A stretch of 63,746 nucleotides of DNA, the filler included, from Craspedostauros australis (taxonomy: Eukaryota): assembly GCA_030167865.1 (NCBI GenBank). It is 12 parts of 12 records of this genome, joined end to end, with 100 filler letters (N's around TTAATTAATTAA, not from the genome) between each part and the next. Parts side by side here need not be neighbours in the genome. Positions count along the whole stretch, not along the records: positions 58,238 to 59,421 come from JALAGF010003030.1; positions 59,522 to 62,438 come from JALAGF010003031.1; 10 more parts are not named here. The stretch is one strand, 5' to 3'. Below are positions 5,538-63,057 of this stretch, piece after piece (positions within the stretch are counted from its first letter, which is position 1; every line of letters begins with the position of its first letter). The position numbers and the translations under genes are program-made. The notes under the pieces are model-generated. The model was not told where the DNA came from. It was given only the letters and a program-made list of their open reading frames with translations, and made no database searches.

Positions 5538-6950
5538 TTAGATGCATGCCTCCAGGGGTTGGTTCTTGGAGGACTTCTTGGAACCGAAGACCTTCTTGGC
5601 CTTGCGTCCTGCGCTTTCCCACGCCGCCTCGACCGTCATGACGGGGAGGAAGGCGTTGGTGATGGCGCGACGATTCTTGATCTTCTTGGCCGCACGCTTG
5701 GCCTCTCTGAGCTCGTCTTCGGAAGCACCGTACTGCCATGTGAGCACGTTTCTTCGCTGGTAGTAGCTGAGGATCATCTGCCTCATGTTTCTCCTGGGGG
5801 ATCTCGATTCCTCGTAGTTCTCGAGCTGGACTGGCTCGTTCTCCTCGTATTCCCAATCGAGGGAGATGGGAGGGCCGTACGAGACGGAAGGGTTGTCACC
5901 GATGGTCTGGGTGTAGTGGCGTATCTGGACCTCCTTGAAGGAGACGGAGGAGGATCGCCTGCGCAAGAGAGGGGCGCCGAGGTCGTCGCTGCTGTCCGTG
6001 TCGAGCGCTGCCAGCGATTCCCTCCTCTCGAAGTGCTGGGACGGTTCCGAGATGCGTCGGTGGATCGTTTTGATGTCGGGCTTGGGCATGACCTTCCACG
6101 AGAAGCGGCCGGTCTTGATGCAAGACGAGTCGGAGAGGCGAGCTTTGAGGATGGAAGTGGGCACGAAGGACTTGCGCGGGGAAGGACACGAGACGCTGCG
6201 GCTGGGAGGCTTTTGGCATGGCATGGGTGGGCATGCGAAGGGCGCCGGTGGGAGAGCGGTCAAGGTCGCCGCGTTGTTGGCCATGATCGTGCGCTGCGTT
6301 CGTTGGGAGAGGTCTGGTTCTGACTCTCCGCGAAGCAGGAAGTGTCTGCGGTCTGAGGCAGAGGCCACAGCCGAGGCTTCTTGGACGATGGCGTCCGCAG
6401 CGTCTTCGCCTGCGGTGTGGATGTCGCTGGTGCTGCGTGGCCTGCGATTGCACTCCATGCCTTCGACGCTGTGGATGTCATCGTCGTCGTCATCGCGTGT
6501 CTGCTGCGGAGTGCGTGCGCTGGTGGATGCCGATGGGGCAGTTCCGGCCGCATCGTTTTCATCGCGGTCTGCGAGCGATCGCGCTGAGCGGCTCACAACA
6601 TCCGCATCCTCGTCTTCGTCTGCGGCCTGCAAACTCTCGCCCAGCGGATCTTCAAGAAGGGCCGGTGGGCTGCAGGTGATGATGCCTCTTGGGGAGGCTT
6701 CCAAGGCAGCAGACACTTCATGTCGGTCATGTCCGGAGGCAGACGAGCAGTCGGACAGGCTCTCCGTGCGGCATGTGCCTTCATCGGCAGCAGCGTGTCT
6801 CACCATCTCCAGCAGGGCCTTGGAAGGTGCCACGGGCGACTTTCCCGCGAGATGGTGGTGTTGCTGAAGCTGCTGCAGTTGCTGCTTGCTAGTCAAGTGC
6901 ATGGGCTCGCCGATGCTTCCAACGGCTGCGCTGCTGCTGTTCATGGTCAT
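5538..6950 (-). CDS. Uncharacterised protein of the diatom 'VxF..GDNPSV..GPP..LDW' family
   Basis: 470-aa ORF with a disordered N-terminus and the C-terminal motif SVSFKEVQIRHYTQTIGDNPSVSYGPPISLDWEY; a paralogous motif occurs in 63058-63738. Confidence 0.8.
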   Translation of the reverse strand: MTMNSSSAAVGSIGEPMHLTSKQQLQQLQQHHHLAGKSPVAPSKALLEMVRHAAADEGTCRTESLSDCSSASGHDRHEVSAALEASPRGIITCSPPALLEDPLGESLQAADEDEDADVVSRSARSLADRDENDAAGTAPSASTSARTPQQTRDDDDDDIHSVEGMECNRRPRSTSDIHTAGEDAADAIVQEASAVASASDRRHFLLRGESEPDLSQRTQRTIMANNAATLTALPPAPFACPPMPCQKPPSRSVSCPSPRKSFVPTSILKARLSDSSCIKTGRFSWKVMPKPDIKTIHRRISEPSQHFERRESLAALDTDSSDDLGAPLLRRRSSSVSFKEVQIRHYTQTIGDNPSVSYGPPISLDWEYEENEPVQLENYEESRSPRRNMRQMILSYYQRRNVLTWQYGASEDELREAKRAAKKIKNRRAITNAFLPVMTVEAAWESAGRKAKKVFGSKKSSKNQPLEACI

Positions 6951-28329: not shown

Positions 28330-29612
28330 GGTGGTTGTGTTCGTGATACTGGCACTGGGCAATGGCGATGCTGTCGTTGCTGTCGTTGCTCGATACTCTG
28401 GTATAGGGTATCGTGGTGATATCTTGCCGTGCAAGCGCAACAATGGCGATGGCGACGTCCACGCGCCCAAATTGTTGATCGATGCCAGTTTGATGTGTTG
28501 TTTGTGCGGTGCCTCGAGAGCGCTGTGTTCGTCTCCTCGATTCTGTGATGTCCATGTGGTCGTTGTTGTCATTCCCAATAATTTCGGAAGCCCATAACCC
28601 AATGACTATTTGATTTGGCTGAAAGAGCATCGTTCTTCGCCATTCGATCAATCGTGAGCGTTTGAAGTCGGCTCAATCGAAGATTTCACGTTTCGCCAGA
28701 AATCGATCGCCTCGTTTGGATGTGTCGAACGAATTTTGTGGCTGTCTTTTGAGGCAACGAGAAAGGGAAAGGAACAGGACGGAACGGAACGGGACGGATG
28801 TGGAAGGCAACGCGAGGGATGCCCAAAGAGAAGAGGGGGAACAGGGCCGCTCGATCGCGCCAGTTGTCTGCTTGTGGTTGCTCTGCCTTTTGATTGGGAT
28901 TTGCTGGAAGTGCTCACAAGCTGAACCCAAGACCACCCAGCTTGTCCTTCCTACGAGTACAACCACTCTACTATACTCCAACGTAGAGCACACGCACACG
29001 CACAGGAAGCCAGGAATACACAAACGATCGCAAGGAAGAACGAAAGGAAGAACACAAGGAGGCACAGGCGCATCCAAACAGGTACGCAAGTCCACAGTCT
29101 CAGCAAGCTTCATCAGTCTCTTCCTCCGAGATCCACCATTCGCTCTTGTCTCTCTCTCTCTCGCTCTCTATTCGGTTCTCGTTTTCGACCAGAGACCAAG
29201 CACACACACTCACACCCAACAGCGCCAGCAGCCAAGTCAAGCCAAATCGGGTCAACTCGAGTCGAAGAATAGAATAGAAGAGAAGGCGCAGAGGCCTCAA
29301 AAAGCATCACATCAACAAGGTCAACAAATCAACAAGCCAAAGCCAACCAAGACACACCAAGAGACACGCCAAGAAATTCGACAAGACAAGTCCCAAGGCG
29401 ACGAAGAGCATCTGCGAACAGCTGTCGCAAAGCCTGAAATTCACGTTCACGAACGAACGAACGACCGGACGTCCATTTGCTCTGCATTCATCACAAGCAC
29501 AGCACGCATACCAACCTTACGAAGTATTACATTGTATTCTAGAATACAAAGTAAAAAGTACGAAGTACAGGTGCACCCACTCTGCAAACGTACGGATACA
29601 ACGATAGGCATC

Positions 29613-32600
29613 ATGTCGGGCACACCTGGCGAGATCTTCCAGCAACGCCGAGCGGCGGCTGCATCCAAGCAACAGGCCGCGAAAGATGGCGATGCAACCA
29701 GCGCAAACAATGCCAATTCGAAGCGCAGCAGCTTCTTGGAGATCCAACAGGAGCAGCAGCAGCAAAAGCAAACCACAAGGTCATCATCATCATCATCCGG
29801 ACAGGGATCCAGGCTGCTCAAACGTGATTCCAGCTCATCGCTCAATCAGCGCGGCGGATTCAACGGGGGCGGCTTCAATGGTGGCGGCAGCAATGGTGGT
29901 GGTGGAAGAGGAACAGGTCGGCGATCCTCCTCACGTAGGTCTCAAAACTCTTCCTCCAGATCGGGTGGTCCGGACTTCACGGACTTTCCGTTGGAGCTGG
30001 GCATCATCTGTTCCCTCAAGGAATCGTTTGGATTCATTCACTGCGCTGACCGAGAGGCGGAAGTCTTCTTCCACTATTCCTACCTCGACAAGGCCAGCGT
30101 TCATTCCGATGATCTCGCCATCGATATGGAAGTGGAGTTCCGCATTGGACCCAGCTCCCGCGACCCGCAGCAAAATGCAGCCTACGATGTTCGACCCTTG
30201 CCGGAAGGCCGGGCCATCGAATGGGAGTTCCAAGAACAACCGGGCGTCACCTTTCAAGGCCACATCGACAGAGTCGCGCGCAGCGACAGATCTGGTCGCA
30301 ACGATACATCCGAGGGCACCATTCGTCTTCTTCCTGCCAAGGCAGAGGGCGGCGACAACGACAAGAACAACGGCAACAGCAACGGCAACAGCAACAGCAA
30401 CGACGACGACGACGACGACACCAATGGCGAAGACAACAAGGAAACAGCCAAGCAACAGGCGGTCAAGTATATCCCCAACTCCTACACCCCAACCAACAAG
30501 AAACGAACGGCGTCGCGGCTTGGCAAGGGCGATCTGGTGGAGTTCGTCGTCGTGATCGATCGCCGCACCAAATCAAAGTTCGCCAGAGAAATCAAGCTCC
30601 TGAAATCGGAACGTGAAGCGCAACAGCAGCAACGCGAAATGGAGCAGCTGCAGAATGCAACCATCGAGCAGGGTGTCGTGGTGTCCATCAAAGCAGATTA
30701 TGGTTTCATCAAATCCAACCAACGCAAGCAGCAGGTGTACTTTCATATTTCGAGCCTTGGCGACCTCACCAGTGAACAAGGGGAGACCATCAATGGGGCA
30801 CCCCCACAAATCCAGATTGGCCAAGAGGTGGAGTTCAAGGTGTTGCAGACTCAGCAGTCGCAACAGCAGCAGCAGCAACCGCAAGGTAGAAAGAGCGGTT
30901 CGGACAATGGCAACAACAACAACAACAATGGTGGAAAGTCGAGTGCGCGTCACATCAAACTGCTGCAGCCCGGCACGGTTCGGTTCCGCAAGATCGTGGG
31001 GCAAGCGATCACGGGCATTGTCTCTCTGTGCCCGCAACCTCCAGCCCTGGCTGGAACATCGGATCCGTACCGCAAGAACAAGTCAACAGATATATCTGGA
31101 GCAGCTGTGGCCAAGGATGGCAGTGTCCTCGGAAAGCTTCGACTCCTTGAGCCATTGGTCGTTCCAACTGTGTCTGCGGCGTCCAACGGTGAAGATCAAG
31201 CGGCGGCTACGACAACAACAATTAGCGAAATCACATTCGCGTGGGATCAAGTACCGGGTGGTATCTATTCCTTCCCAATCGTATCCAGGGGTGGTGGCAA
31301 CGGAGCGGCGTCCGGATTCAGCACGCTCTGGATCAAACCAGGCGACCGCCTTTGTTTTGATGTCGTTCATGACTTCGCGGAAGACGCATTCCTCGCAACT
31401 CCAATCTTGCTAGATCCAAAATCCGTTGATGCGTTCGAAACGCCAGCAATCATTCCGGGCAAGGCGAAAATGCTACAGCTCTCTTGCCTGAGCTTGGCCG
31501 GTCGTTATGAAGGTGTCATCCAGTCGCTCAACCTCCAACGAGGCTTTGGTTTCATCCAATTTGCAGAGACCAATGCCACCATCCACTTCAAGATCGGCGA
31601 TGTCATGCCGGAAGCTGTCCATTCGTCCCTCTACGGCAAGCAATCCGATGCCCTACGCATCGGCGCGTCCGTATCATTCGACTTGACATCGCGAGCCGGC
31701 AAGCCCAACACCTCCCGCGGCAAATCACCACCAAGACGCGGACGCAACGCGGCCAGGAACGAGAAGGAACTCGTGCAGGCATACCGCGTCACAATCCATC
31801 CTCTCGATCAACCAGTCCAGCATGAGATCAAGGCGATCGCGAATACCAAGGCCACGGTCGTCAAGGAGGACAAGAAGCAGCTGTACGCGGGAGCTCTCGA
31901 ATGCGAGGTCGAATTCGTCGATCACATGACCCTCTCAGAACGCCATCCCACCGTCGCGAGGATGTTGCGGGACTTTTACGAGGAATCCGACAAACCGAAT
32001 GGCCGTCAATCCATCATGTACTTCGACACAATCCCTCTGGCCGAAGACCATGCCGTTGTGGCCCTGGTGAACGATCTCTATTATGACACGATGGAGGTTC
32101 AGCATGTGCCTGTGGCAAAGTACCCCGCGCATCCGGGGCGTTTGCGCATTTCACGACGAAGGGATGCCGCCGAGGAAAGTGCCGCTCCAGTTGATGGTGG
32201 GAGCAAGGACGGTGCATCGGAAGAACACACGGGAGGCAACGGCGCTGACCAAGGCGACGTGGACAACAAGAACGGCGACGCTGGTGCGACTTCCGGCGCT
32301 GGTGCCGAATCGCCATCCGCTCAAACCAACAAGGCTGTTCGCAAACGCAAGAAGCAACCGAAAGGACCGACGAAACACATCACGTTTTCGAAGCAATCCC
32401 TCACGGAGGCAGCCAAGGACGATGTTCCACCCAACGTCGGCGACACTATCGTTTGCGATTTGTACATGATTCGTCGCAACGGACGCATGACCGTGCGCAA
32501 CATGCGCGTCGTCGAACGTGCGGAGCGAGAGGAAATGCAAATGGAAGGTGACAGCACTTCTGGTGTTGGCATCGTCAAGGAGTTCCACCCAAAACGTAAC

Positions 32601-33908
32601 TTCGGCTTTGTGCACGTGCTGGATGAAACCGCTACCAAACGCGACATTCTCTTCTTCAACATGCCACCCAGCTCTCCATCTGCGACCAGCGGCGGCGGAG
32701 ATTACGGCAAGAACATCGCCGTCAAGAGGGGTGACGAGGTGAGCTTCGATATCGTGACGGAGACGAACGGGAAAACAGTCGCCAAGAATGTGCAGCTGAT
32801 GAAGAAGAACAGCATCCCGAACAAGACGGCCAAGAATGCCTGTTTTGGTTTCATCTTGTTGGAACCATCCCACACAAAGCTTTCCGACACCCCAGCGCGC
32901 AAGCTCCGCAGCACAGCATCCTCCGGCAGCAACGAAAGCGGGAAGTTGTCCAGCAGATGGGACAATACAGCCGACGCACCTCACAAGGCCCACCACAAGG
33001 ACTTGGCAGAGGAGGGTTCGATTCTCCTGGTCGACGACAAGACCGGGATGTTCAACAAACGCAAGGCGCCACCTATGACCAAATCGTCTGGTTCGATCGA
33101 ATCTGTTCTTTCAATTCAAGACGAAAGCGCAGCAGAGACCAAGGAAGCTGCTGATGCGAATGCGGCAGCGGGTGGCGCTGCGGACGGTGAAAGCCAAGCA
33201 GCAACCCAAGCAGACGCAAACCAAGCCACAGCCTGGCCTCCAGCTGAAAGCAGCATGATCTTGCATCACATTCCATATAAGAGCGGCTCCACCGCCATCC
33301 ACGGAGCGGGTTCCACAACTTGCTTCGATGGCTCGACCAAGCCCCGCAGAGGCGACTACGTGTCTTTCGTCAAGGGTCGCGATGGGAAAGGAGCGCGGGA
33401 TATCAGGGTCGTCCGTCGCCAACATGCCACGAGGGTGCGCGGTAGATTGGAGAACATCGTCTGCCTGGAACAAGACGACGACACCGACAGCATCTCCAAC
33501 GCCGGCACAGCACGATTCATCGCCGCCACGGCAGATCAGAAGGAATACAACATCGATCTGTCCGAGGTGGTGAGTTGCAGCGCCGCGCTGCTGAAGGAGA
33601 AAGACGCCGTCGAGGGTGTGGTTTATCAGGGCCAGGTGTTTGGTATCTGCCGAACGACGGATCTGTACCTGGAGTCCAAATTGGGAACCAAGCACAAGGA
33701 GCGACCGAAGCTGAACCTCACTGTGAAGAGGGATCGCGGCGGTACGATCATGGCCCAATCCATGATGGCGAAGGGACCGGATGGTACAACCGGGTTCGCC
33801 GCAGGTTGGACGAACCGAACCAACCCGTTCGTGTCGGAAGCGGAAGCGAAGGAGGGCGATGCCCAAGCAGACGCGGGCTCTCCTGCCGAAGAGGAAGCAA
33901 CCGCATGA
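29613..33908 (+). CDS. CSDE1: Multi-cold-shock-domain RNA-binding protein, CSDE1/UNR-like
   Basis: Repeated CSD RNP motifs (KESFGFI..EVFFHYS, KADYGFI..VYFHIS, RGFGFI..IHF, RNFGFV..ILFF) and a C-terminal SUZ-C-like AKGPDGTTGF. The first in-frame ATG is at 29613. Confidence 0.85.
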   Translation: MSGTPGEIFQQRRAAAASKQQAAKDGDATSANNANSKRSSFLEIQQEQQQQKQTTRSSSSSSGQGSRLLKRDSSSSLNQRGGFNGGGFNGGGSNGGGGRGTGRRSSSRRSQNSSSRSGGPDFTDFPLELGIICSLKESFGFIHCADREAEVFFHYSYLDKASVHSDDLAIDMEVEFRIGPSSRDPQQNAAYDVRPLPEGRAIEWEFQEQPGVTFQGHIDRVARSDRSGRNDTSEGTIRLLPAKAEGGDNDKNNGNSNGNSNSNDDDDDDTNGEDNKETAKQQAVKYIPNSYTPTNKKRTASRLGKGDLVEFVVVIDRRTKSKFAREIKLLKSEREAQQQQREMEQLQNATIEQGVVVSIKADYGFIKSNQRKQQVYFHISSLGDLTSEQGETINGAPPQIQIGQEVEFKVLQTQQSQQQQQQPQGRKSGSDNGNNNNNNGGKSSARHIKLLQPGTVRFRKIVGQAITGIVSLCPQPPALAGTSDPYRKNKSTDISGAAVAKDGSVLGKLRLLEPLVVPTVSAASNGEDQAAATTTTISEITFAWDQVPGGIYSFPIVSRGGGNGAASGFSTLWIKPGDRLCFDVVHDFAEDAFLATPILLDPKSVDAFETPAIIPGKAKMLQLSCLSLAGRYEGVIQSLNLQRGFGFIQFAETNATIHFKIGDVMPEAVHSSLYGKQSDALRIGASVSFDLTSRAGKPNTSRGKSPPRRGRNAARNEKELVQAYRVTIHPLDQPVQHEIKAIANTKATVVKEDKKQLYAGALECEVEFVDHMTLSERHPTVARMLRDFYEESDKPNGRQSIMYFDTIPLAEDHAVVALVNDLYYDTMEVQHVPVAKYPAHPGRLRISRRRDAAEESAAPVDGGSKDGASEEHTGGNGADQGDVDNKNGDAGATSGAGAESPSAQTNKAVRKRKKQPKGPTKHITFSKQSLTEAAKDDVPPNVGDTIVCDLYMIRRNGRMTVRNMRVVERAEREEMQMEGDSTSGVGIVKEFHPKRNFGFVHVLDETATKRDILFFNMPPSSPSATSGGGDYGKNIAVKRGDEVSFDIVTETNGKTVAKNVQLMKKNSIPNKTAKNACFGFILLEPSHTKLSDTPARKLRSTASSGSNESGKLSSRWDNTADAPHKAHHKDLAEEGSILLVDDKTGMFNKRKAPPMTKSSGSIESVLSIQDESAAETKEAADANAAAGGAADGESQAATQADANQATAWPPAESSMILHHIPYKSGSTAIHGAGSTTCFDGSTKPRRGDYVSFVKGRDGKGARDIRVVRRQHATRVRGRLENIVCLEQDDDTDSISNAGTARFIAATADQKEYNIDLSEVVSCSAALLKEKDAVEGVVYQGQVFGICRTTDLYLESKLGTKHKERPKLNLTVKRDRGGTIMAQSMMAKGPDGTTGFAAGWTNRTNPFVSEAEAKEGDAQADAGSPAEEEATA

Positions 33909-47764: not shown

Positions 47765-49270
47765 TTAATCAGCCGCGCGCTTCTGATTGACAAATGTCGC
47801 AAAGTGCCCCTCCTGCAACAAGGCTTCGGCCGCACGCAAGATGTATAACACTTTCACATAGTTCACGTCCATCAAGAAGTGGACACCGTCCGATGTTTGC
47901 GCGCGCGTCGTGAGATTCATCCAATCCATCACCGTCGCATTTTGGACCGCGCTGTCCAACAGCTTTGGGAATTGTTGATTGAAGAGCAGGCGATGACGTC
48001 GATCTTGGTGCGGGTACGCTTCATCCAAGGAGGTCGATTGCGAACTCATCGACATCCAGAGCACGATGAACTTACGAGAACACTTGACCAATTTGGGATG
48101 ATGCCATACGGGTTGAAAGAAGCGAAACGTTGCGGATGCTCGGACGGCGAAATGCATGCCGCCTTGCAGTACAAGAAGGATGGGACGCGTGTCCTCGCTG
48201 CTGCATTGGATGTCGTTGAAATCGTACTGCGCTTTAAATCGTTTGGCGCCTCCGTTGTACGCAGAGGATTGATAGTGCACTGATGTGGAGGATGGTGCAG
48301 CCGTGTCGTGGACGGGCTCCTCCTGGCTGTCGTTGCCATGCGTATCTATTTGCTGCGACACCACGAAGTCGTACATGTCTTTACCGTACTTGCGACAAAA
48401 GGCGTGCTCGCTGAATAGGCCGTCGCATTGACACACTTCCGATGGCTTGGTCTCCAAATGGTCGGTCAAACGAGGATCGAAGATGTGATTGCCAGCGGTT
48501 TGGACATCGCTGGAGAGGTGAATGTGGAATCCAAGCATGATATGCCTTGCCAACGAGTCTCCGATTATGACGACGTTGGAAAAGCGAGTGACGATGGATC
48601 GCATCCGGTGGTGATGCATGGCAAAATCCATCTCGCAATGATTTGCAGGGACAAACCATGACGGCTGCTTTTCCAGGGCTTCATCGGAACATGCCGGATC
48701 GGAGGAATTTGCGGCAGCGCTTTCATGCGTACATGCTGCTTCCCAACGCCGACGACCATGCTTCAAAGATCGCAGAATAGCATTAGATGTGGCGCATTGC
48801 TTCCGTGAGGTTTGGTCTTCGTCCGCGTCACCGGAGGAATGGGGGAGATGCTGCAAGGAGAAATGTCGTGCATTGGACGGCATCTGGTGCAACTGCAATG
48901 AGTGAGAGTCTTTCTTGTCCAAGACATGATTCGCTGACTTGCAGTGCTGGAAGGCTGTCTCTGCCTTTGCCAGCGGGAGTGGTTGGATGCAGTAGTCGGA
49001 CTTTGAAGATGGCTGCGACGCTGTGGATTGCGATTCTTTGTGATGAACCGTTGCAGCTTGAGGGCGACCATCGTCGCCAGCAACGCCAACAGCGGCCGAA
49101 CTGTATCTTCTGGCGCCTTCAGCTGCGCCCGCCTTGCTTCTGTCCGTGCCATCCACTGTTAGGTTCTTCAGCATCGAGTCATCCTCGGCGATGAAAATGA
49201 CCGCAGCGATGATGGTGAGCACCGCCAGCTGCACAACTCGGCCCCGCCATGCTGTGCTCTTTGTCAGCAT
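47765..49270 (-). CDS. SGNH-fold type II membrane protein, TBL/PC-esterase-like
   Basis: N-terminal TM anchor, IIGDSLARH and TSDGVHF (DxxH). The first ATG is at 49270. Confidence 0.78.
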   Translation of the reverse strand: MLTKSTAWRGRVVQLAVLTIIAAVIFIAEDDSMLKNLTVDGTDRSKAGAAEGARRYSSAAVGVAGDDGRPQAATVHHKESQSTASQPSSKSDYCIQPLPLAKAETAFQHCKSANHVLDKKDSHSLQLHQMPSNARHFSLQHLPHSSGDADEDQTSRKQCATSNAILRSLKHGRRRWEAACTHESAAANSSDPACSDEALEKQPSWFVPANHCEMDFAMHHHRMRSIVTRFSNVVIIGDSLARHIMLGFHIHLSSDVQTAGNHIFDPRLTDHLETKPSEVCQCDGLFSEHAFCRKYGKDMYDFVVSQQIDTHGNDSQEEPVHDTAAPSSTSVHYQSSAYNGGAKRFKAQYDFNDIQCSSEDTRPILLVLQGGMHFAVRASATFRFFQPVWHHPKLVKCSRKFIVLWMSMSSQSTSLDEAYPHQDRRHRLLFNQQFPKLLDSAVQNATVMDWMNLTTRAQTSDGVHFLMDVNYVKVLYILRAAEALLQEGHFATFVNQKRAAD

Positions 49271-50084
49271 CAAGGAACGGCACAAGCTGAGAGCTTTACG
49301 AGCTATTATACGATCTAAGGTGGCGAGAAGAAGGGTGCTGGGCTGTCGATGTGTATCGAATGGCACTACTATTATACCTCGTGCGAGGGTGGAGGCAGGA
49401 CACTCGCGATGTCAGCGGATGAGATGAGCACATCGCAAGTTCGAGGACTGCGTGTTTGTTTGTCATCTCGTTTGCCTGTACCCGTGCGAATTCGGTTCTT
49501 CCCTTCTCACATACCGTTCTGTTCTTGTGCGTGTCTGCTTGTCTTGTTGATGGCAGAATTCTGCCTTTCCCATTTGTTCCCGTGATTCGGTGCACTTGCA
49601 GTCGGGCGCGCTTGAGTCACGGATACCCTTTGGGGCATCGCACCGCAACGATCGACATTTCGGGCACGGCGACAATTTCCCACCCCATCACAAGATTCTC
49701 ATCTCCCCCACCCATCGACTTCTTCTGGCCGTCGAGGCGAGCTCATCATCAATCCGTTCTGCGACTACATACATACAGCGACGTACTATACTCACGAGAG
49801 ATCCTCGTCACACCAAGTGAGTATTTGTACTGTCTCCTTTTTGGGTGTGCATCCGTTGCTCGTTTTGCTGCGGCTTCCGTGCATGATGTGAGTGTCTGAA
49901 TTGGGGAATGACGAAAGGAAACAGTCATGTCGATGGATGGCATGGTCGCATGCCGTACGGGTACCTGCTGAAGCTCCTGTGAGCTGGGCATGATTCAAAC
50001 AGCGGCCGGATTTGTTCATCATCCTCATCTGAGTGTCCTTTGCATTTTGTTTCTCTCGCCCATCGTTTCTCTCTTGCATCCAAC

Positions 50085-52941: not shown

Positions 52942-54696
52942 TCATTCATCCCGCCCGAACTGCGCACTCGGCATGGACTGATGAGGCCGGGCCAGCCAAG
53001 GAAAGTCGACCGCGCTCAATCGCTCAATGCGGCTATCAGTCAACGTCGACTTCTGCCCGTTGGAATGCAGTCGGTACTGCCGACGCTGGGCCTTTGCCCA
53101 AATGCCGAGGGAAGGGTTCTCGTCGCACTGGGTTGGCACGTTCGTGTGGCCGTGCTTGTCTCTGTACGTCATCAGATCATTGAAGCGCTTCTCCCATGCT
53201 TCCCCGTGCGAATCCCACACGAAACCAAGCCGCTCCAGCTTCCTCTGCCTCTCGTCTGTCAAAGTGGAACGTTGTCCTTCGTTCTTCTGCTTGTGCTGGT
53301 ATCGCTGCCGCTTCACCCAGTGGGACAGCGTCTTGTCATCCTTCGGCTCGACGATGCAATGCCTGTGCTGCTTGTGGAAGGCGACGAGCTCGTCGTATCG
53401 GGCGTTCCATTGATCCGATTGGTACTGACGGAACTTGATGCTCTTCGTTGGCGGAGCCGACCGCATCCTCTTTCTCGGTGATCGCTGTGTGGGTGTGGGT
53501 GCGCGTGTAGATGTGCGCCCAGTTGCCTCGACGATCTCTTGTGGGAACGTTTCGACTTGGCATGGAGCACCTCGAATGGATGTGATGATGCTGTTGTCCA
53601 CGAAGGAGTAGAGGTGGGTTGGATCGGCGGAACGCTTGAGCAGTGATGGGGTCTGAGACTGCGGCTGTTCGAGGCCATGATGGCATCCATGGGTGTTCTC
53701 AGGAGAGGTGTCGGTATCAATCGGGATGTCATCGAGCCAGGATTCTTCGCCGGCGTCGTCCCAATCTTCCAGCTGCAGAGTCTCGAAATGGAACCTTGTG
53801 GGCACGGGCATCAGGTCGCTCCCTCTGGCTTTCTTGATGGGTGAAGGCTGGCATGAGGACGGCAATTCCTGGAATGGTATTGCTACATCAACGAGGGAAC
53901 GATGATGACGATCATGTGCTGCGAGGCTGGGCTGTCCATCAAAGCAGAGGTACTGCCGTGGCAGGCGTTGTGTCTGCTGTGTCTGTTGTGTGCGTTGCTG
54001 ATGATGTTGCTGATGATGTTGCTGGTGCGGATGGTGATGCTGCGCGAGAGAAGGAGCAAGAGGAGAAAGGGGAGGCAAGTGCGACAGATGAAGTGCTTTG
54101 GTTGTTGTTGTTGGTGGTGGTGTATGTGATATCTGTGATGTCTGTGACGATTGCGATGGTCGTCTTCCGTGTACGACTACTCCTGCTGTTGGTGATAGCG
54201 TCGTTGTAGTTGATGAGACCGAAGATGAAACCGAAGATGAAACGAAGACATCACTGAGAAAGTTCTGGATTTCGTGCATTTGTTCCGAGCTCCGAAAGGT
54301 CTCCGTGATGCCCACGAATGAGACACCCTTGACTGACTCACATCCGATGGGGGATGGTTCCAGCATGCTCGATTCTTCGTGATGGTTGGCGTTGCGCGAA
54401 GAGTTGATGTTGGTGCTGGTTCTGGTGCTGGCGACGTGACCGTGATTGCAGTGATTGCAACGACTAATTGTAGACTGCTTCTGACACGTGCCGCAACTGC
54501 TCGACGTTGTAGTTCTTTGGTTCGATTTGATCGAGGTGATGTCGATGTCGGCGTTGGTTCTGCGGGAACCTTGGGTGGCACACTTTTCCTTGGTGCTGTG
54601 TCGGGCGGTGTCGATGGCGATGGCGGTGCTGGTGACGGTACTTCCAGTTGCGCGTATCTGTAGATTCCGAGAGAGGTTCGAGGTACGCCGTGACAT
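52942..54696 (-). CDS. Helicase-associated (HA) domain protein, two C-terminal HA repeats
   Basis: WNARYDELVAFHKQHRHCIV...LSHWVKRQR...LERLGFVW and WEKRFNDLMTYRDKHGHTNVP...LGIWAKAQR...LSAVDFPW after a long low-complexity N-terminus. Confidence 0.9.
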   Translation of the reverse strand: MSRRTSNLSRNLQIRATGSTVTSTAIAIDTARHSTKEKCATQGSRRTNADIDITSIKSNQRTTTSSSCGTCQKQSTISRCNHCNHGHVASTRTSTNINSSRNANHHEESSMLEPSPIGCESVKGVSFVGITETFRSSEQMHEIQNFLSDVFVSSSVSSSVSSTTTTLSPTAGVVVHGRRPSQSSQTSQISHTPPPTTTTKALHLSHLPPLSPLAPSLAQHHHPHQQHHQQHHQQRTQQTQQTQRLPRQYLCFDGQPSLAAHDRHHRSLVDVAIPFQELPSSCQPSPIKKARGSDLMPVPTRFHFETLQLEDWDDAGEESWLDDIPIDTDTSPENTHGCHHGLEQPQSQTPSLLKRSADPTHLYSFVDNSIITSIRGAPCQVETFPQEIVEATGRTSTRAPTPTQRSPRKRMRSAPPTKSIKFRQYQSDQWNARYDELVAFHKQHRHCIVEPKDDKTLSHWVKRQRYQHKQKNEGQRSTLTDERQRKLERLGFVWDSHGEAWEKRFNDLMTYRDKHGHTNVPTQCDENPSLGIWAKAQRRQYRLHSNGQKSTLTDSRIERLSAVDFPWLARPHQSMPSAQFGRDE

Positions 54697-55286
54697 TCCT
54701 CAACAAGCAGTGTCCGATTGTTGGCGTCGTTGTTCAGTCAAATGGACGATGGATGGGTTGATGGATGTGGATTTTTATGATCGGAGACCATTGTCGATCC
54801 ACGATACTGATCCACGATACTGGTCATGATGTTGGTTGGCACGACTGTAGGTAAGAAGTCGCCATTCCTCTGCGCAACGCAAGATGGAGAGTACGATGTT
54901 TGGTTCCTGACGACTCAAAAAGTTGCGTTCGCTTGCTCTCGTCATCATCGTCGTGTCGTCGTCATCATCCAAATGATTGATTACGTTGGCAATGGCGGCA
55001 TCACTTGTGGCTGTTTCCCTTTTGATTTTGCTTGTGCGTTTGCTTTCGGTCTGTTGCGTTGGTTGGGGGCGGTTGAGGTGTTTTGTGAGGCAAAAACCAG
55101 CAACATCCTCATTGCGTGTGCGTTTGTGTCCGTGTTTCTGTGGGCAGAAAGAGTTGTGCCGAGTCGCCTTCGATGAGTTGTTCCGTNNNNNNNNNNNNNN
55201 NNNNNNNNNNNNNNNNNNNNNNNNNNNNNNTTAATTAATTAANNNNNNNNNNNNNNNNNNNNNNNNNNNNNNNNNNNNNNNNNNNN

Positions 55287-56581
55287 GTCACCACACTGGC
55301 ATATGTTATGCTGGATGGTGCTTCAGTCATGTGACCGCCTGCCACAAGTCGCGCCTTTCGTGTGAGGTCAACTTTGATATCGAAGATCATGTGACATGCA
55401 ATGTAGGTGTATCCGACTGGTGGCTTCGTGTCTTCTGTCTTGATGTCGAAAGCTGGTCGAACGTTCTTCATCTCTTTCTCCAATGCTTTGCGCCAGAAGT
55501 CGGTTCCTGTCTCCTCGTCGATCGCAAGAGCTCGTTGGACGCTCTTTGGTAATTCGAGACCATATTTCTCATTTCGTCGGAAGTATCGTTTGCGGTTGGC
55601 CATCAGGATGCGGTTGCGCCGCTTCATTGTGTATGGAACCCACCATCGAAAGGCAGGCTCATTGGTGAGCTGGTTGTTGGTCGCATACTCGGCTGTCTTC
55701 ACAGGGTCAGCCTCCTTGGCATCGCGTAAGTGAATCCATGATGTAGATCCGTCTTTCCATAACACACACAGCTTCCATCCCTTTGTCGTCTTCGTGGTCG
55801 TCTTGTCATCAGCGGTTGCTGCGGTTGGGAGTCGCTTATGGTCGATGATATCCTCCATCAAGAGTGTTGTGTATCCGTCGTCATCTGTTCGTGCGTAGAT
55901 ATTTTCCGCGATCTGATTCGCATTGAACACCTCGCTGTGCCCGTCGACAAATTCAACCTCATACATGGACGTGTCAAGAAGTGGATTTGAATGTGAGTGA
56001 CCAATCAGCTTCCCGCTTGCATCGCGCTTTCGGCGCTTCACAGTACCAAATTGGATGTCATCACCCGCAGGCAACTTGACTCGAGCAGACAGGTATCGAT
56101 CGTATGCGTCTTCGTCGGCGTCAGCTGGCTCTATCAAAGGTTCCAATGATGTAGTCTGCTCCAGGAATGCAATGTCTTCGGCTGTGTCGTCGACGTCGTC
56201 TCCGTCGTCCCCTGGCTTGATGCCTTCCATTCGATCTTTCCATTTGTTTCGTAGATTGGACATGAAGTCGGATTGTTGTTGTTTGACTGCTTCACTGTTG
56301 AGGTCGACATCGGATAAAGGAATGACAGAGGATTTAGAAACAACAGCGCCAGAAGATGTGAGAATGTACGAGCACATCGCTTCACCCACGGCCTTTGACG
56401 GACCGAGGTAGCGACCAAGATGTTTTGTGTTCATGTTTGCTCCCTGGAGATTCATGTACCACACAAAGTCGAACCACCCGAATTCTGAGATATGTGAGAT
56501 GTCGGTGGTATCGCCAGTTAGGATTGTAGTTGGTGTCTGGCCATGTAGATCATATATCTGAAGTGCTGTGTTGCTTCGAAT
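55287..56581 (-). mobile_element. CoDi-type Ty1/copia pol fragment (integrase C-terminus, chromodomain-like segment, RT start)
   Basis: GQTP...LTGDTTDIS...EFGW, GRYLGPS..VG..M, NPLLDT..YEVEF, TTKGW....WKDGST.W, HMIFDIK.DLTRKARLVAGGH. Confidence 0.93.
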
Positions 56582-56681: not shown

Positions 56682-58137
56682 CCAGATCCTACTGGAAGCG
56701 TCTACCAGTCCGACTCTCAACGAAATCTACGATATGGACCCTCTCATTCTCCAAGCCAAAGCGCACGACGACGATCATCCATCCCTTGCCGACGTCCTGA
56801 ACTGCCCTGACCTAAACGAACGAGTCACATGGCGAAAAGCAATGAACGCTGAAATCGAACAGCTTCTCGACAAGAAGACATTCCGCGTGGTTCCTCGGTC
56901 AATGGCAATCAACCACGAAATCATCCCTTCAACTTGGGTCTTTCGTCGCAAGAGATTCCCGGATGGATCCATTATGAAGCTCAAAGCTCGTCTCTGCGTA
57001 CGAGGAGACCAACAGCAACGAACAGGGCGAGACAGAAATGAAACGTTTGCTCCTGTTGTTGAATGGAGCTCCATCCGTCTGATATTCGCACTGATGATCG
57101 AACACGGACTGCACACGCAATCAATTGATTTCAAAAATGCATTTGTTCAATCTCATCTGCCTGCTCCAATCTACATGCTTCCTCCTCCTGGACCGATTCC
57201 TATCAATAATCCAAACATTCCAGAGAAGGACCGCCCGATCCTACAAGTCAATAAGAGTCTTTACGGCGACCGAAGAGCACCACGCCTGTGGTACGAACAT
57301 CTTCGCGACGCCCTCATCAGCAACAAATTCGGATTCAGAATGGCCAAGCAAGATCCCTGTCTGTTCCTCAAGAGCAACATCATCATTTGCATCTACGTGG
57401 ACGATGCGATCCTTTGCGGTACAACGATGGAAATCATTCAATCGACTATCCAACAGCTGCAGCAAGAAGGTTTTGACCTCACATGCGAAGGAGATCTCTC
57501 TGCATACCTCGGTATAAAGATCGAGAAATCCAATGATGACCAAATCAAGCTTTCTCAGCCTGGCCTCACAGCCAAAGTCATTGAATCCCTCGGACTGCAA
57601 CAAGGATCCTCCCGCGTAATTCCAGCAGATGCCACTCTTGGCAAGAACCCAGACGCTGATCCCATTTCCAATCAATTCAACTACAGATCCGTATTGGGAA
57701 TGATGATGTATCTTGGCACGAACACAAGACCAGACTGCGCATTCGCCATCAATCAATGTGCTCGTTTCAGCCATGATCCGAAACATCCTCATGAACTCGC
57801 ACTCAAACGTATCGGACGCTACCTCCTCGGAACGAAAGACCAAGGAATCCAAGTCAAACGATCAGCAATCGGCTCCATGAACTGCTATGTTGACGCCGAC
57901 TTTGCCGGAGTCTGGGGCAAGGAAGATCCTCAAGATCCCAACTCCGTCCGATCCCGCACTGGATTNATCATCACCCTTGGTAACATGCCCATCATTTGGA
58001 AATCGAAGATTCAGTCCGAAATCGCCATGTCAACACAAGAAGCAGAGTACATCGCACTCTCAACCGCAATGAGATCAGTCATACCTCTCAAGAACGCTCT
58101 CAAACAACTCATGCACGCCTTCCACATCAAATCAACA
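56682..58137 (+). mobile_element. Ty1/copia reverse transcriptase-RNase H fragment (different lineage/orientation)
   Basis: WRKAMNAEI, KLKARLCVRGD, IDFKNAF, KSLYG, IYVDD, TRPD, YVDADFAG, SRTG, STQEAEYIALS. Confidence 0.96.
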
Positions 58138-60467
58138 NNNNNNNNNNNNNNNNNNNNNNNNNNNNNNNNNNNNNNNNNNNNTTAATTAATTAANNNNNNN
58201 NNNNNNNNNNNNNNNNNNNNNNNNNNNNNNNNNNNNNCCAGTTAAACAATGAGAGAAGCCACCACACTGGAGGACCATGTTGGTCTGGCATGCGATCTCA
58301 CCACCTACACGTGGAGGCCAATTAGCGCTGTTGATGCGAACCCAAAAGAAGTGACAAATTTGGCACATGTGCCAAATTTGTCAGCAAAAAACTCATTAGG
58401 GATATCGTATTCGGTGGAGTTGATATCTGTCATCCGATTCCACGGTTGATTCGGATGCATTTATCGCGTGTTTTGTGTTATCGTGTTTCGGACTCCCACA
58501 CGATGGACATTGTTGAGAAAATGTGGCGCGCAGTGATATCTTCGATTCGTGGATGATTCGATGATCAATTCATCATGATCGAAGATTTGCTTCCGACACG
58601 ATCAGGAAATTCCCGTGCCTTAAAATTTAGTCACTGGAATAATCCCACATGGTTGTGCTTTGTACGGGCATGGAGCACTTGCGCGTGCAGCGTATCCTCT
58701 ACAATGCTCTCTCTTTGATTTGATTTGATTTGATGTATCCATGTTGGTTATATCCTTGGCGATCCATTTTGAGTCTCCATTCAGCGCACTGTGCTTCCGC
58801 TCATCTCTCTCCCTCCTTTGCCCCCCAACTCTACCGACACAACTTAACCGATTAACGCTTGCCCCTATGCAGAGCCTTTGGAAACACATCCATCTGGCCG
58901 ATGGCATTCACGATCGTCGACCTCACAATGGAGACTCAAGACAAGTTGGGTTCGCCGGGGATTGTCAGAACGTAATCGTAGATGGGTTTGAAGATACCGC
59001 ACCGAGAACGTAGAGTGATCAAGTCGTTGTTGTTGGTGAGGAGAGTGTTTGTTTACTGTGTTATTCGTATGGTAGTAGGAATGCTGTCAAGCTCACAAGA
59101 TTGTCTTCTTGGAACTGTGAGCATGAGAGAGGCATGACATGATCTCATGCAAATGCAAGTAAAATTAACACGGAGACAACACGACAAATGTGCGTGTTAC
59201 TGCGTGAAGAAGATTTGCAAAAGTCAATGAACAAAAACACCGCGATACCCCGTGTTGTGAATTACGTCTTCTCACGATGTTGCTAGTAGTACGATCACAC
59301 GATTGATCGTATTCACTTGAGAAGGTCATGGCAAGACTCGCACGTGTCGCACCCAAGACCGAAGTCTGTCCTGATTGGGCAGAGAGGTTCATCTTGGCAA
59401 GAAATTCATTTCCGCGACATCNNNNNNNNNNNNNNNNNNNNNNNNNNNNNNNNNNNNNNNNNNNNTTAATTAATTAANNNNNNNNNNNNNNNNNNNNNNN
59501 NNNNNNNNNNNNNNNNNNNNNAAGTGCGTATGAGAGAATAACGGGTGAACGATGCACATATACACGTACATCTTGACATATACTCACATGTACATCTCGA
59601 CATTGATTCTTGTGGGTTGCAGCACTCCTGCTCGCTGCGCTCGATACTGCTGCGGGATGAGCCTTGACTCTGCCTCGATCGGAGCATCCGCCAGCTGAGT
59701 GGATGCCGCCATTGTCTTCTCCACCACGTGTGGCGGAAGGTGACGGAAGATTCTCGTGAAATCGACCCGACCTGCGTTGCGTCGTAGACGCTGATGTCTA
59801 CCGCATATGATGATATGCTGCGCCGTTGCCATCTCGTGGGCTGTCGGCTTTCTGATGGGAATTCTGAGCGTGTTGCCTTCATGGTTCTCCAGTGGTATGC
59901 TGATTTCGTCCGATGAGACCCGCTGCTGTCCCTGATGTTCGATTAGGCGATCGTAGACGTTCAGTCCGGACGCGCGCATATGATGTGTGTTAAACAGTGA
60001 TTCCGTCTGCTGTGGATGCTTGTCGAGAGCCACGTAGTTCGCTTTGATGAGGATCACGCCGCCTGATGGGGGCTCGTATGCTGCCACCGCGTCNNNNNNN
60101 NNNNNNNNNNNNNNNNNNNNGCGTCGACCATCTGGAATGTCTCGATTGGTGAGTTGATCGTCGCCCCTCGGGCACGAAACTCTTGTTGGTGTGTGTGGGT
60201 CACCTCCCAGCCCGATGCATGAACGATGTCTCCGTCCGCCCCTGAGTCTAGGATGATAAAGCATTGGCTATTGTTCGTTACTCTTGCCCTTCGGATGTAG
60301 TGCTCCACTGTCGGGTGGGTTGTGCACGGACGGGACTCTTGTGGTACCTCCGGACGTGCACGTCCGGGCACTCCCGCTGCGGTCGTCACGCTTGCCCCCC
60401 TACAGTTGCGGGGTTTGAGGTGGATGACAATCTCCGACTGACGGCGAGTTGTGCCCGTCTTTGATTG

Positions 60468-61865
60468 TCAAGAACCGGTGTTCCATGATCCTTGGGTGCC
60501 AGGTCGTCTGTTCTTGTGATTGCCTGTGCGAGGCCGCTTGGACCCTCGCTGGGTCAGTGGCAACTCGAGGTTGCGCGCGTACTCTGTTGGCTTGTTGCGC
60601 TTGAGTGTGTCTTCATCGATTGATTTCCCGGTGGTGCGGAAGTGACGAGACGCCTCGACGAGGAGCACTTGAGTGCTTGCCGGCATGCGACGGAAGACGG
60701 AGTCCGGCAACCGAAATGATGCGGCGCCCTTGCGATCCCACTTGGAGGATTCGCGTGGCCTCTTGCAGTCGTCCTTGGTGTCCTTCTGCTGGTATCGACA
60801 GTTGCGCTTGGGAGAGTAGTGTCCTTCCGACTTTGTGAGGAGCGCATCATGTTGCATGAACGCCTCTCGGATTGCGTTGAAGGACTGTTCCGTGTGACGG
60901 AACCTGGACATCTCGCTCGTGAAGCGATCGTCCGTGATGTTGCGGAAGAACTTTGCGATCTTCTGTTGGTCTGTCATTTGCTTCCCGTTCTGCTCCATGA
61001 CGCGGATGCATCTGGAGAAAGCATTGACGAATACTGGGAAGGGCTCGGATCCGTAATAACGGAGCTCGGCGATTTTCTGTTCTTCTTCGACGATGGCTTC
61101 AGCTTTGTGTTCGGGTGACTCGTATGTTCGCACGAGTGCCTGGAACGCATCGTGTCCGTTGGGTTCGTGGGCTTCCACGATGAACGCTGCACATCCATCT
61201 GCTGTCTTCGTGTGCAGCACTGTGTACAGCTGCTGGTCGATCTCTGCCTCGAAGTGCGATGGTTTGTCAGCACTGAGATATGCGGCGTATCTGGATGTGA
61301 CCAGCTGGCGCTTGAATGCGATCTTCCAGTCGTACCAGTCGCAGTTCATTCCAGTGAACTCGGGTGCTTCCGGCATGCTGACCTTGTCGAACTTCCATCC
61401 TGATGGAGTTCGCAGGGTCCGTGGTGATTGTGATGTGCGTGTCGCGCGGCTCGGAGAGCTGACGGTTATCTCGCGGCTGGTTGCGACTGTCATCTCCGTG
61501 GCTGCGGCTGCCTCTCTGATTGCGATTTCCGATCGGACTTGAGCGGCTGCGTTCGCGACTGGCGTGCTGACCTCTGGTGGCACGTAGTTGTTCGCGTCGT
61601 TGAACAGGTCAATTGCTGCCCAATCTGTGCGTGCAGTGATCGTGTTGGCTCTTGCGTACACGAAGATGCGGAGGATGTTGGTGATGCTGATTGCTGACAG
61701 CGTTGGCGAAAGCGTCAATGCCGCCACGATGGTCGCGTCCGAGTTGCGGATTGTGCGATTGAGTCTCCCGAGCTTCTTGCCGAGGAACTCCATCTCTTCA
61801 TCATCGAGCTGAACCAGCTCTTGGATGATCTTGTTGAAGGTATTGATGTTGGTTGGACGGTCCAT
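60468..61865 (-). CDS. Copia gag (465 aa) ending at an in-frame UGA
   Basis: PEFTG...WYDWK..F, DQQLY..L..KT..G.A..IV......NGHDAF..L...YE, F..F...F; lies directly downstream of the PBS. Confidence 0.85.
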   Translation of the reverse strand: MDRPTNINTFNKIIQELVQLDDEEMEFLGKKLGRLNRTIRNSDATIVAALTLSPTLSAISITNILRIFVYARANTITARTDWAAIDLFNDANNYVPPEVSTPVANAAAQVRSEIAIREAAAATEMTVATSREITVSSPSRATRTSQSPRTLRTPSGWKFDKVSMPEAPEFTGMNCDWYDWKIAFKRQLVTSRYAAYLSADKPSHFEAEIDQQLYTVLHTKTADGCAAFIVEAHEPNGHDAFQALVRTYESPEHKAEAIVEEEQKIAELRYYGSEPFPVFVNAFSRCIRVMEQNGKQMTDQQKIAKFFRNITDDRFTSEMSRFRHTEQSFNAIREAFMQHDALLTKSEGHYSPKRNCRYQQKDTKDDCKRPRESSKWDRKGAASFRLPDSVFRRMPASTQVLLVEASRHFRTTGKSIDEDTLKRNKPTEYARNLELPLTQRGSKRPRTGNHKNRRPGTQGSWNTGS

Positions 61866-61912
61866 GGTGATAGCTCGAAAGGTGGTAAAAGGGTAGTGTG
61901 GTGTTGGGTGTT

Positions 61913-61942
61913 GCTCAGTGTTGGTAAGCACGACTCTTAATC
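61913..61942 (-). promoter_or_regulatory. Primer-binding site complementary to the 5' half of tRNA-Lys(CUU)
   Basis: The plus strand reads GCTCAG-TG-TTGGTA-A-GCACGACTCTTAATC, resembling the D-arm and anticodon arm (CTCTTAA loop) of tRNA-Lys(CTT), and abuts the LTR end. Confidence 0.75.
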
Positions 61943-62112
61943 TGTCAAACAGTGCAAGTAACTACGAAAGACGTATTGGCCCGTTGTTGCGTGCCCTGGT
62001 CGGAGCTCTTGTTGTTTATTTGTGAGTGCTGTCCGAAGACAGCCCCCGACCAGTATTTGACTAATAGGATTAGTAAAGAAGTAAGAAGTAAGGAATTCTG
62101 TGAGAATTGTCA
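61943..62112 (-). repeat. Putative 170-bp LTR (TGACA...TGACA on the minus strand)
   Basis: TG..CA termini, internal AATAAA and adjacency to the PBS. The outer boundary is inferred because no second LTR is present in the window. Confidence 0.55.
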
Positions 62113-63057
62113 CTCCTCGTCAATGAATGATCGTGGACGACACGATGTTGGCGTCACAAGCTCAACGGCCAATACGTGGAGACTCACCTTGAGAATCATC
62201 GATCGTGAAAAGGCCAGTCGGCACCTGTCACGTGGTGTACGAGCATCGTGGACATCGAAAACAACCCACGCTGTGCCACACTACCGATGCTGCCACTACC
62301 AAACCAAGGCCAACGACCTGCAAAACGAAACAGCGCAAAGCATCATGGCACAACTCTGTTGGAACATGACGAATATTCAGATTCGTGTATGACCCGGTAG
62401 GGGTCACAGTTGCGCAAATGACTGCTCACACATATTTGNNNNNNNNNNNNNNNNNNNNNNNNNNNNNNNNNNNNNNNNNNNNTTAATTAATTAANNNNNN
62501 NNNNNNNNNNNNNNNNNNNNNNNNNNNNNNNNNNNNNNGCCTACAGATCGACCAATGGAACAAGTGCTGTGACATCAATGCTGCATGAAGATGTTGTTGG
62601 AATCGTGGCGGCCATCTGCACGGCTTTGGATGCAGCACTCCTGATGCGGTTGGGAGGCGCCGCATCATTCGATTGAGATCGCCGTTCGTGCCGATCTGCG
62701 ATGGGCCGTGCACAGCACTTCTGGATGGAAACATCATCAGTCACCACCACATTAACGAACGGTGACGATGAGTGCGTCGAGCGTGTTGGGCTTGCGAAGC
62801 ACGGATGGTAGCATCTTGAGGGTGGCAACAGGGAGCGGTCACACAATGGTACTACTGGAGTGCGCATCTACCACCCAACCGATCCAAGTGAGAGTGGTAC
62901 GGTGATACTCGTCCACGATGGTCGAGCACCGCAGTCCCTCGCTGTTGCTGTACAATGCACTCCCACGACCCGTACTGCTCTGTACGTACGATACAATGCG
63001 ATATACTCTACAGTAGAGGAGCACGGTACTAGGATAAAACAATGAACTACGGCCACT

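Follow-up and report, generated by a model that had tools for sequence, protein, structure and literature searches.

How does a retrotransposon produce its Pol proteins when the reading frame that leads into them is closed by a stop codon at the end of gag? The question is raised by a fragment of a probable copia-type LTR element in Craspedostauros australis, in which the minus strand at the junction of gag and pol reads, directly, ACC GGT TCT TGA CAA TCA AAG ACG. The window, that is, the whole stretch of DNA analysed (63,746 nucleotides), is made up of 12 small contigs joined by linkers of the form N44-TTAATTAATTAA-N44. The element lies on an unplaced contig of 2917 bp (59522-62438) that holds an N gap and cuts pol short. 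About 570 nt are present 5' of the gag ATG, and the 3' end of the element is absent from the contig. The analysis of the stop concerns one copy of the element, on this gapped 2.9-kb contig. The host is a diatom, as stated in the preliminary description, and one of the neighbouring host ORFs matches a diatom transcript at 97% identity. The features of the junction are as follows.

60471..61865, minus strand: gag ORF of 465 codons; its first ATG is at 61865-61863, in the context ACCATGG.
60468..60470, minus strand: in-frame UGA ending gag, the sole stop in the 603 codons up to the gap.
60462..60467, minus strand: hexanucleotide CAA TCA, directly 3' of the stop and fitting CARYYA.
60121..60467, minus strand: post-stop ORF in the gag frame, with a 72-codon linker that has no ATG, followed by the start of the protease.
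60234..60254, minus strand: I-L-D-S-G-A-D, putative aspartic protease active-site motif, assigned at the level of the motif.
60094..60120, no strand: assembly gap of 27 N with the same 5 nt (GACGC) on both flanks.
59587..60093, minus strand: continuation of pol, covering what is left of the protease and, according to Atlas leads, possibly a pre-integrase region.

The frame of gag is open from position 61961, with a GTG at 61931 (487 codons when counted from the GTG). Gag and protease are separated by one in-frame TGA, and the other two frames downstream carry stops. Past the TGA the gag frame remains open for 115 codons up to the 27-N gap and includes the I-L-D-S-G-A-D motif at 60254-60234; both the single stop and the open frame had been claimed from first inspection, and both stand. 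No ATG occurs in the 72 codons between the TGA and D-S-G-A, and therefore the protease cannot start alone at an AUG. Readthrough would be expected to use just this arrangement, with gag and pol in one frame, a lone stop separating them and no ATG for pol.

The gag protein itself has no match in Pfam. However, an exhaustive phmmer search of representative proteins found 40 gag homologues (best E=1.8e-25, identity at most 28%), and 24 of the 41 members of the gag alignment match PF14223 (Retrotran_gag_2, copia-type gag). One of these is P0016, which matches the query gag with E=4.6e-6. The earlier assignment as a copia-type gag is thus made probable by transitive homology, because it is the homologues, and not the query, that match PF14223. 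The exact gag sequence was absent from the protein collection searched.

The assignment of the protease is putative, and combines one motif with one alignment: the post-stop ORF shows weak co-linear similarity to the start of the protease of P0016 (E=0.028). If the GACGC flanks of the gap overlap, pol remains in the gag frame across the 27 N. It ends at a TGA (59584-59586); the contig ends at 59522, about 280 codons past the gag stop. Of the copia Pol order PR-IN-RT-RH, with its RVT_2 reverse transcriptase, the contig thus contains a protease motif and a possible pre-integrase region. The Atlas leads for the continuation are diatom hypothetical clusters (0.96-0.98), Pol_BBD (0.86) and gag_pre-integrs (0.85). 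Pfam gave no match for either the protease region or the ORF after the gap, and no protein homologues of the post-gap piece were found. A protein search with the readthrough product, in which the stop was replaced by X, found no longer fused proteins. The fragment may be dead or misassembled, given the N gap, the early end of pol and the lack of a recognisable integrase zinc finger.

The immediate context of the stop is that of a leaky codon: the UGA is followed by C at position +4, and CAA TCA at 60467-60462 fits not only CARYYA, in accordance with the preliminary description, but also the consensus CARNBA quoted for yeast. Contexts of the CARYYA type are reported to increase readthrough in plants, yeast (CARNBA) and human cells (PMC4132726, PMC3542737). 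In human cells about 15% readthrough was described in one reporter context, where UGA was equal to UAG and all six bases mattered (PMC4132726, PMC3542737). The chance of finding CARYYA after a given TGA is about 0.3%. On both strands of the window TGACARYYA occurs twice, compared to 5.8 occurrences expected from shuffles. Signs of decay are absent from the copy. Its CpG observed/expected ratio is 1.1, and of the codons that a single transition would turn into a stop, all 45 in the 603-codon stretch are intact.

The relatives provide a second line of evidence. The closest homologue, P0002 (28% identity), is also a transcript ORF, and its gag ends 11 alignment columns before the position of the query TGA. 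When measured from the conserved D-x-D-Y/F anchor, the C-terminal tail is 149 residues long in P0002 and 150 in the query. Five of the 40 homologues were dropped from this comparison (two without the anchor and three with tails of 40 residues or fewer), and 23 of the 35 usable ones end 130-203 residues past the anchor. The protease motif is absent from 38 of the 40 homologues, which are 192-587 residues long, and the contigs of 13 of the 20 homologues looked up are at least 3.4 kb in length. In the two remaining proteins, P0016 and P0017 of the diatom Mayamaea, gag leads into the protease motif without a stop; therefore, single-ORF designs exist in the wider family.

Our confidence is somewhat better than even that the gag of a diatom copia-type LTR retrotransposon natively ends at this TGA (60470-60468), and that the stop is bypassed by readthrough. 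This reading is favoured because CARYYA follows a given TGA in only about 0.3% of cases, the gag proteins of relatives end equivalently and decay is not seen. Against it stand the single copy, its gapped contig and early end of pol, the uninterrupted P0016 and P0017, the distance of the relatives (at most 28% identity), the putative nature of the protease and the result with Tca2 described below. The same uninterrupted ORFs speak for a different origin, in which the family has one gag-pol ORF and the TGA is a private nonsense mutation (of CGA, for example, by a C-to-T change) or a base-calling error. The one copy is itself truncated and interrupted by a gap, and its 2.9-kb contig is unplaced. 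Isolated N calls on neighbouring contigs point to low-quality sequence, and the CARYYA context was spotted post hoc. However, a private mutation would have to fall, by coincidence, about 1-11 residues from the gag end of the closest homologue, in a context with a frequency of about 0.3%, and in a copy that has no second stop in 603 codons and no CpG decay. The complementary 8-mers described below would be a further coincidence. Furthermore, 38 of the 40 homologues are gag-only ORFs. With the stop at the gag ends of relatives, no ATG for the protease and no decay, a private mutation or error is the less likely origin, and we regard it as unlikely, though deserving of serious attention.

Other copies were looked for. 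Searches of the window by blastn, tblastn and a gag profile matched only the element itself, the window contains no repeat partner for it, and no relative loci were found in metagenome, genome and viral contig collections. We infer that the native stop is ancestral to the element family, and, judging from the sequence, UGA readthrough may well occur in the diatom host. Most ribosomes would then halt at the UGA and release Gag, while a minority would read it by means of a near-cognate tRNA and go on translating in frame, producing a Gag-Pol fusion in which Pol starts with the protease. Rare bypass of this kind would result in a high ratio of Gag to Pol. The stimulator would most likely be the primary sequence 3' of the stop, namely the C at +4 together with CAA-UCA.

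A structured RNA downstream of the stop had also been suggested as part of the signal. Its elements are as follows.

60440..60459, minus strand: weak hairpin of GACGGGC, a 7-nt loop ACAACTC and GCCGTC, with an energy of -6.0 to -7.5 kcal/mol.
60425..60434, minus strand: GAGATTGTCA, containing the candidate partners of the hairpin loop and of the stop region.

All of the suggested pairings are present. The hairpin begins 8 nt 3' of the TGA, and GAGATTGT, located 5 nt beyond the hairpin, is able to pair with its loop with one bulge (S2, -3.6 kcal/mol). In addition, GATTGTCA (60432-60425) is exactly complementary to TGACAATC, a stretch that crosses the stop. The minimum-energy fold takes this 8-bp outer stem, whose duplex has an energy of -8.6 kcal/mol; at 145 of 121,372 positions (0.12%) there is an 8-mer whose exact reverse complement follows at a distance of 3-60 nt. 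The exact 8-bp helix, which buries the stop and its context, might modulate how accessible the stop is, or have a role in the genomic RNA. As a special signal, the hairpin or pseudoknot fared less well. A pseudoknot using the whole loop leaves zero nucleotides for loop 1, the fold z-scores of -1.37 (81 nt) and -0.14 (191 nt) are unexceptional, and the segment past the 8-nt spacer ranks in the 16th-20th percentile of 587-589 in-frame positions in the same element. A search of the contig against Rfam gave no match. RNA structure is probably not the stimulator.

The gag-UAG-pol junction of MuLV (type III) has an in-frame stop and an 8-nt spacer before the structure (PMC3542737), and the spacing here is the same. 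However, MuLV depends on a compact, stable pseudoknot, whereas the diatom candidate is weak (S1 about -7 kcal/mol, within -6 to -7.5; S2 -3.6 kcal/mol with its bulge) and ordinary for the element. The likeness to TMV (type I) is in the primary sequence: the stop is followed at once by CAR-YYA, a rule under which UGA is reported to work as well (PMC3542737, PMC4132726). The natural type I cases are mostly UAG stops in plant RNA viruses, whereas the stop here is UGA, in a stramenopile retrotransposon, and the signal is a candidate.

Among retrotransposons, an in-frame stop between gag and pol is a known strategy (PMC10085805, PMC2194720, PMC3441728). Tca2, a Ty1/copia element of Candida albicans, has gag, UGA and pol in one frame with a candidate 3' structure (PMC2194720), as in the present element, but its host is a fungus and it is described as lacking CARYYA (PMC3441728). 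No sequence relationship to Tca2 came out of the searches made with the diatom element against general collections. The copia element VdLTRE5 of Verticillium dahliae shares the gag-UGA-pol order, which its description calls 'rarely observed' and 'very rare' in copia; it too is reported without CARYYA, in contrast to the diatom element (PMC3441728). In the fission yeast elements Tj1, Tosmo1-3 and Tcry1 the stop is likewise an in-frame TGA with C at +4, and that of Tj1 is reportedly essential for transposition (PMC10085805). These elements differ in being Ty3/gypsy and in their context, GAA-TGA-CT, which is conserved over five elements, whereas a single copy is available here (PMC10085805).

Tca2 also shows that a native stop may be bypassed in another way. 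Its junction alone is reported to give no readthrough in yeast, and a promoter exists at the junction (PMC2194720). By analogy, the diatom stop could be native and be overcome with the help of remote signals, by an internal promoter combined with non-AUG initiation, or by reinitiation, or Pol could be supplied non-autonomously. The weak downstream structure would agree with such a mechanism. Nevertheless, no ATG lies between the TGA and the protease motif, and the context is among the best documented leaky ones in eukaryotes, whereas Tca2 and VdLTRE5 are described as having no CARYYA (PMC3441728). Bypass by any of these routes is considered improbable. Three further possibilities were discarded on reading the sequence. 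No plausible donor and acceptor pair of realistic length would preserve the frame in an intron across the stop. Nothing supports selenocysteine or a variant code, and the neighbouring host ORFs are normal under the standard code. A frameshift is unneeded, with pol in frame 0.

The preliminary description knew of no account of such a recoding signal in diatoms. As a claim of novelty this was overstated: the strategy is known, and Maumus et al. 2009 had already recorded stops or frameshifts separating gag from pol in diatom copia elements. The passages of that paper drawn on here propose no recoding signal for the CoDi elements. The groups of CoDi elements, from Phaeodactylum and Thalassiosira, are defined on the reverse transcriptase (RT), whereas the contig of the present fragment has no RT. 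An RVT_2 fragment at 56683-58137 is located on a different contig from the gag/TGA element. A literature search covering titles and abstract openings found no report of readthrough in diatoms. To our knowledge, no diatom has so far been used to test CARYYA.

The gag-TGA-pol fragment is a plausible further case of a known strategy. More tentatively, and with less confidence than is given to a native, leaky stop, it is proposed that diatom copia-type elements as a group keep gag as an ORF of its own and that this lineage makes its Pol through UGA readthrough driven by CAR-YYA. If so, no retrotransposon before this one would be known to use a TMV-type CAR-YYA signal, because Tca2 and VdLTRE5, the two copia elements with gag-UGA-pol considered here, are reported without CARYYA (PMC3441728). 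Nor would any recoding signal have been defined earlier in a stramenopile alga, and the junction would provide a compact leaky-stop cassette of 9 nt for genetic engineering of diatoms. If the TGA is a private mutation, the locus is merely a dead transposon fragment. Should the stop prove to be both native and leaky, readthrough would set the ratio of Gag to Pol in a diatom retrotransposon by a strategy that is 'very rare' among copia elements, and the six-base effect known from plants, yeast and human cells would extend to the stramenopiles.

The junction of gag and pol lies on the minus strand of a short contig, with the following features:

59522-62438, contig of the element, 2917 bp, containing a gap of 27 N at 60094-60120
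61961-60468, minus strand, gag frame, open from 61961, with a GTG at 61931, the first ATG at 61865-61863 (ACCATGG context) and the terminal TGA at 60470-60468
59587-60093, minus strand, post-gap ORF of 169 codons, in the frame of gag and the protease motif if the gap flanks overlap

The sequence observation of the preliminary description is confirmed. The minus strand at the stop reads ACC GGT TCT TGA CAA TCA AAG ACG, exactly as described, and the frame runs on into the protease motif, I-L-D-S-G-A-D at 60254-60234, remaining open for the 115 codons between the TGA and the N gap. The other two frames of this interval are interrupted by stops, and the 72 codons between the TGA and the D-S-G-A motif include no methionine codon. 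The same five nucleotides, GACGC, are found on each side of the gap (flanks 60089-60125), so the gap probably does not exist or has a negative length. Overlapping the flanks would place the pre-gap protease ORF and the post-gap ORF in a single frame, that of gag. The post-gap ORF stops at a TGA (59584-59586) within GTGAGT, and TG/TA-rich low-complexity sequence then extends to the contig end. Pol is incomplete because the contig ends at 59522; the end of its ORF (59522-59600, minus strand) may mark where a truncation or an insertion took place, or may be a site resembling a splice donor.

The gag ORF itself has no match in Pfam. With the readthrough product carrying X at the stop as query, phmmer was run exhaustively against 1.84 billion representatives and returned 40 homologues (E <= 0.001). 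The closest, P0002, has 28% identity (E=1.8e-25); those with a name belong to the diatom Mayamaea pseudoterrestris or to a marine eukaryote transcriptome. Since 24 of the 41 jointly aligned sequences match PF14223, the copia-type Gag family, the upstream ORF is, by transitive homology, probably a divergent copia-type gag. The protease is putative, being recognized by a D-S-G-A motif preceded by hydrophobic residues and by a weak co-linear match (E=0.028) to I-I-D-P-G-S...G-W-E-V of the Mayamaea homologue P0016. Neither the protease region nor the post-gap ORF matches Pfam. In a protein-language-model atlas the latter adjoins unnamed diatom clusters (0.96-0.98), with Pol_BBD and gag_pre-integrs as weak leads only (0.85-0.86). 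The 2917-bp contig carries no reverse transcriptase, integrase core or LTR pair, so the assignment to copia is incomplete and that to a CoDi group even more so.

Comparison of DNA and of protein showed no second stretch like this contig elsewhere in the window. The 63,746 bp consist of 12 small contigs separated by 11 N44-TTAATTAATTAA-N44 linkers, which lie within 1567-62538 (for example 59422-59521 and 62439-62538). The linkers place a stop in all six frames. Because the chain is artificial, adjacency of features on different contigs is meaningless. Other ORFs in the window are:

28623-33908, plus strand, large open frame of 1761 codons with two stretches of cold-shock domains (PF00313, E=1.4e-24) plus a domain of CSDE1 type
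about 52942-54699, minus strand, host ORF with a helicase-associated (HA) domain, on a neighbouring contig
56683-58137, plus strand, RVT_2 (copia-type reverse transcriptase) fragment, E=2.9e-42, filling almost all of a separate 1.46-kb contig

The first encodes a very large CSD protein rather than a transposon polyprotein. The RVT_2 stretch is another copia element fragment, on a different contig from that of the gag element. The HA-domain ORF matches a diatom transcript ORF with 97% identity across 99% of its own length, and its next named matches are from other pennate diatoms. These matches identify the host as a diatom; about 100 relatives come from diatoms and metagenomes, along with bacterial helicases that have the same domain. 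Long minus-strand frames at 55290-56581 (430 codons), 47768-49411 (548) and 5541-7031 (497) have no Pfam match at E <= 0.001.

The TGA could be a private nonsense mutation or a sequencing error, as the copy is truncated and sits on a gapped, unplaced contig, and scattered N calls occur in the contigs alongside it. We regard this as rather unlikely, because the TGA sits near the point where the gag of P0002 ends, 11 alignment columns before it. The tail following the conserved D-x-D-Y/F anchor (F337 of the query) is 150 residues in the element versus 149 in P0002. It measures 130-203 residues in 23 of the 35 usable homologues, 47-101 in nine and 230-313 in three; five of the 40 were left out, two lacking the anchor and three having tails of at most 40 residues. 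Also against a private mutation, 38 of the 40 homologues (192-587 aa) lack the protease motif, although at their distance they do not reveal the frame of their own pol relative to gag. Thirteen of the 20 homologues with looked-up clusters are on contigs of at least 3.4 kb, and up to more than 1 Mb, so that many of the gag ORFs probably finish at a genuine stop and not where a contig breaks off. In the two exceptions, P0016 and P0017, gag runs directly into the protease motif, so single-ORF designs exist too. The context of the stop likewise speaks for a native terminator: CARYYA follows a TGA by chance in about 0.3% of cases, although it was spotted post hoc. TGACARYYA occurs twice in the window, counting the two strands together, against 5.8 expected. 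Nor are there signs of decay, as CpG o/e is 1.1, all 45 codons of the frame that a single transition would turn into a stop (CGA, CAA, CAG, TGG) are intact, and the TGA is the sole stop in 603 codons of the gag frame. No DNA of relatives was found in public contig collections, and the exact gag sequence is absent from the protein collection. Position, architecture of the relatives, context and lack of decay lean towards a native stop.

The RNA 3' of the stop had been proposed to form a hairpin and pseudoknot acting as a recoding signal. All the complementarities listed are present, yet the energies are weak. The hairpin starting 8 nt after the stop has -6.0 to -7.5 kcal/mol, and the duplex of its loop with downstream sequence -3.6 kcal/mol with one bulge. 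By standard pseudoknot geometry, an H-type pseudoknot that engaged the whole 7-nt loop in stem 2 would have zero nucleotides left to form loop 1. The minimum-energy fold is dominated by an 8-bp helix, TGACAATC/GATTGTCA (-8.6 kcal/mol). This helix contains the stop and would be opened by any ribosome whose A site is occupied by the stop, so a role like that of the MuLV pseudoknot is excluded for it. Its exact 8-mer complementarity, found at 145 of 121,372 positions (0.12%), is the sole unusual structural item. The junction fold is energetically modest and not exceptional: folding z-scores are -1.37 (81 nt) and -0.14 (191 nt), and among 587-589 in-frame positions of the element the segment of 40-41 nt that follows the spacer falls at the 16th-20th percentile, and one of 52 nt counted from the stop at the 11th. 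The contig has no Rfam match. A structural signal at the stop is unsupported rather than refuted.

The readthrough proposed in the preliminary description is thus supported in part: its pseudoknot is unsupported, and recoding itself is somewhat favoured, from a single broken copy and indirect comparison. The sequence makes it a little better than even that TGA 60470-60468 is the native gag terminator and that low-level UGA readthrough would yield Gag-Pol, stimulated by the primary-sequence context at the stop. The available text of the sources reports that CARYYA raises UAG and also UGA readthrough in plants (PMC3542737), and that a similar motif, CARNBA, is effective in yeast (PMC3542737, PMC4132726). 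In a human reporter with one context, CARYYA gave ~15% readthrough, UGA equalled UAG and all six bases mattered (PMC4132726, in part). UGA followed by C at +4 is described as a general leaky context (PMC10085805, in part). Effects in plants, yeast and human point to a general property of eukaryotic ribosomes, and context-driven readthrough would hence be plausible in a diatom. That a native stop is bypassed by another route, as argued for Tca2 (PMC2194720, available text), seems improbable here.

Separating gag from pol by an in-frame stop is a well-established strategy. As far as the available text of the reports goes, MuLV combines UAG with a pseudoknot placed after an 8-nt spacer (PMC3542737), and GAA-TGA-CT is conserved across the gypsy elements Tj1, Tosmo1-3 and Tcry1 of fission yeasts (PMC10085805). 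The Verticillium paper, in its available part, calls the gag-UGA-pol organisation "very rare" in copia elements; the two copia elements with it, Tca2 and VdLTRE5, both lack CARYYA (PMC3441728). Stops or frameshifts separating gag from pol had already been described for diatom copia elements by Maumus et al. 2009. No recoding signal is named in the available text of that study, and a literature search, judged by titles and abstract openings, found no stop codon readthrough in a diatom. The distinctive point of the Craspedostauros element would be its TMV-type context in a retrotransposon.
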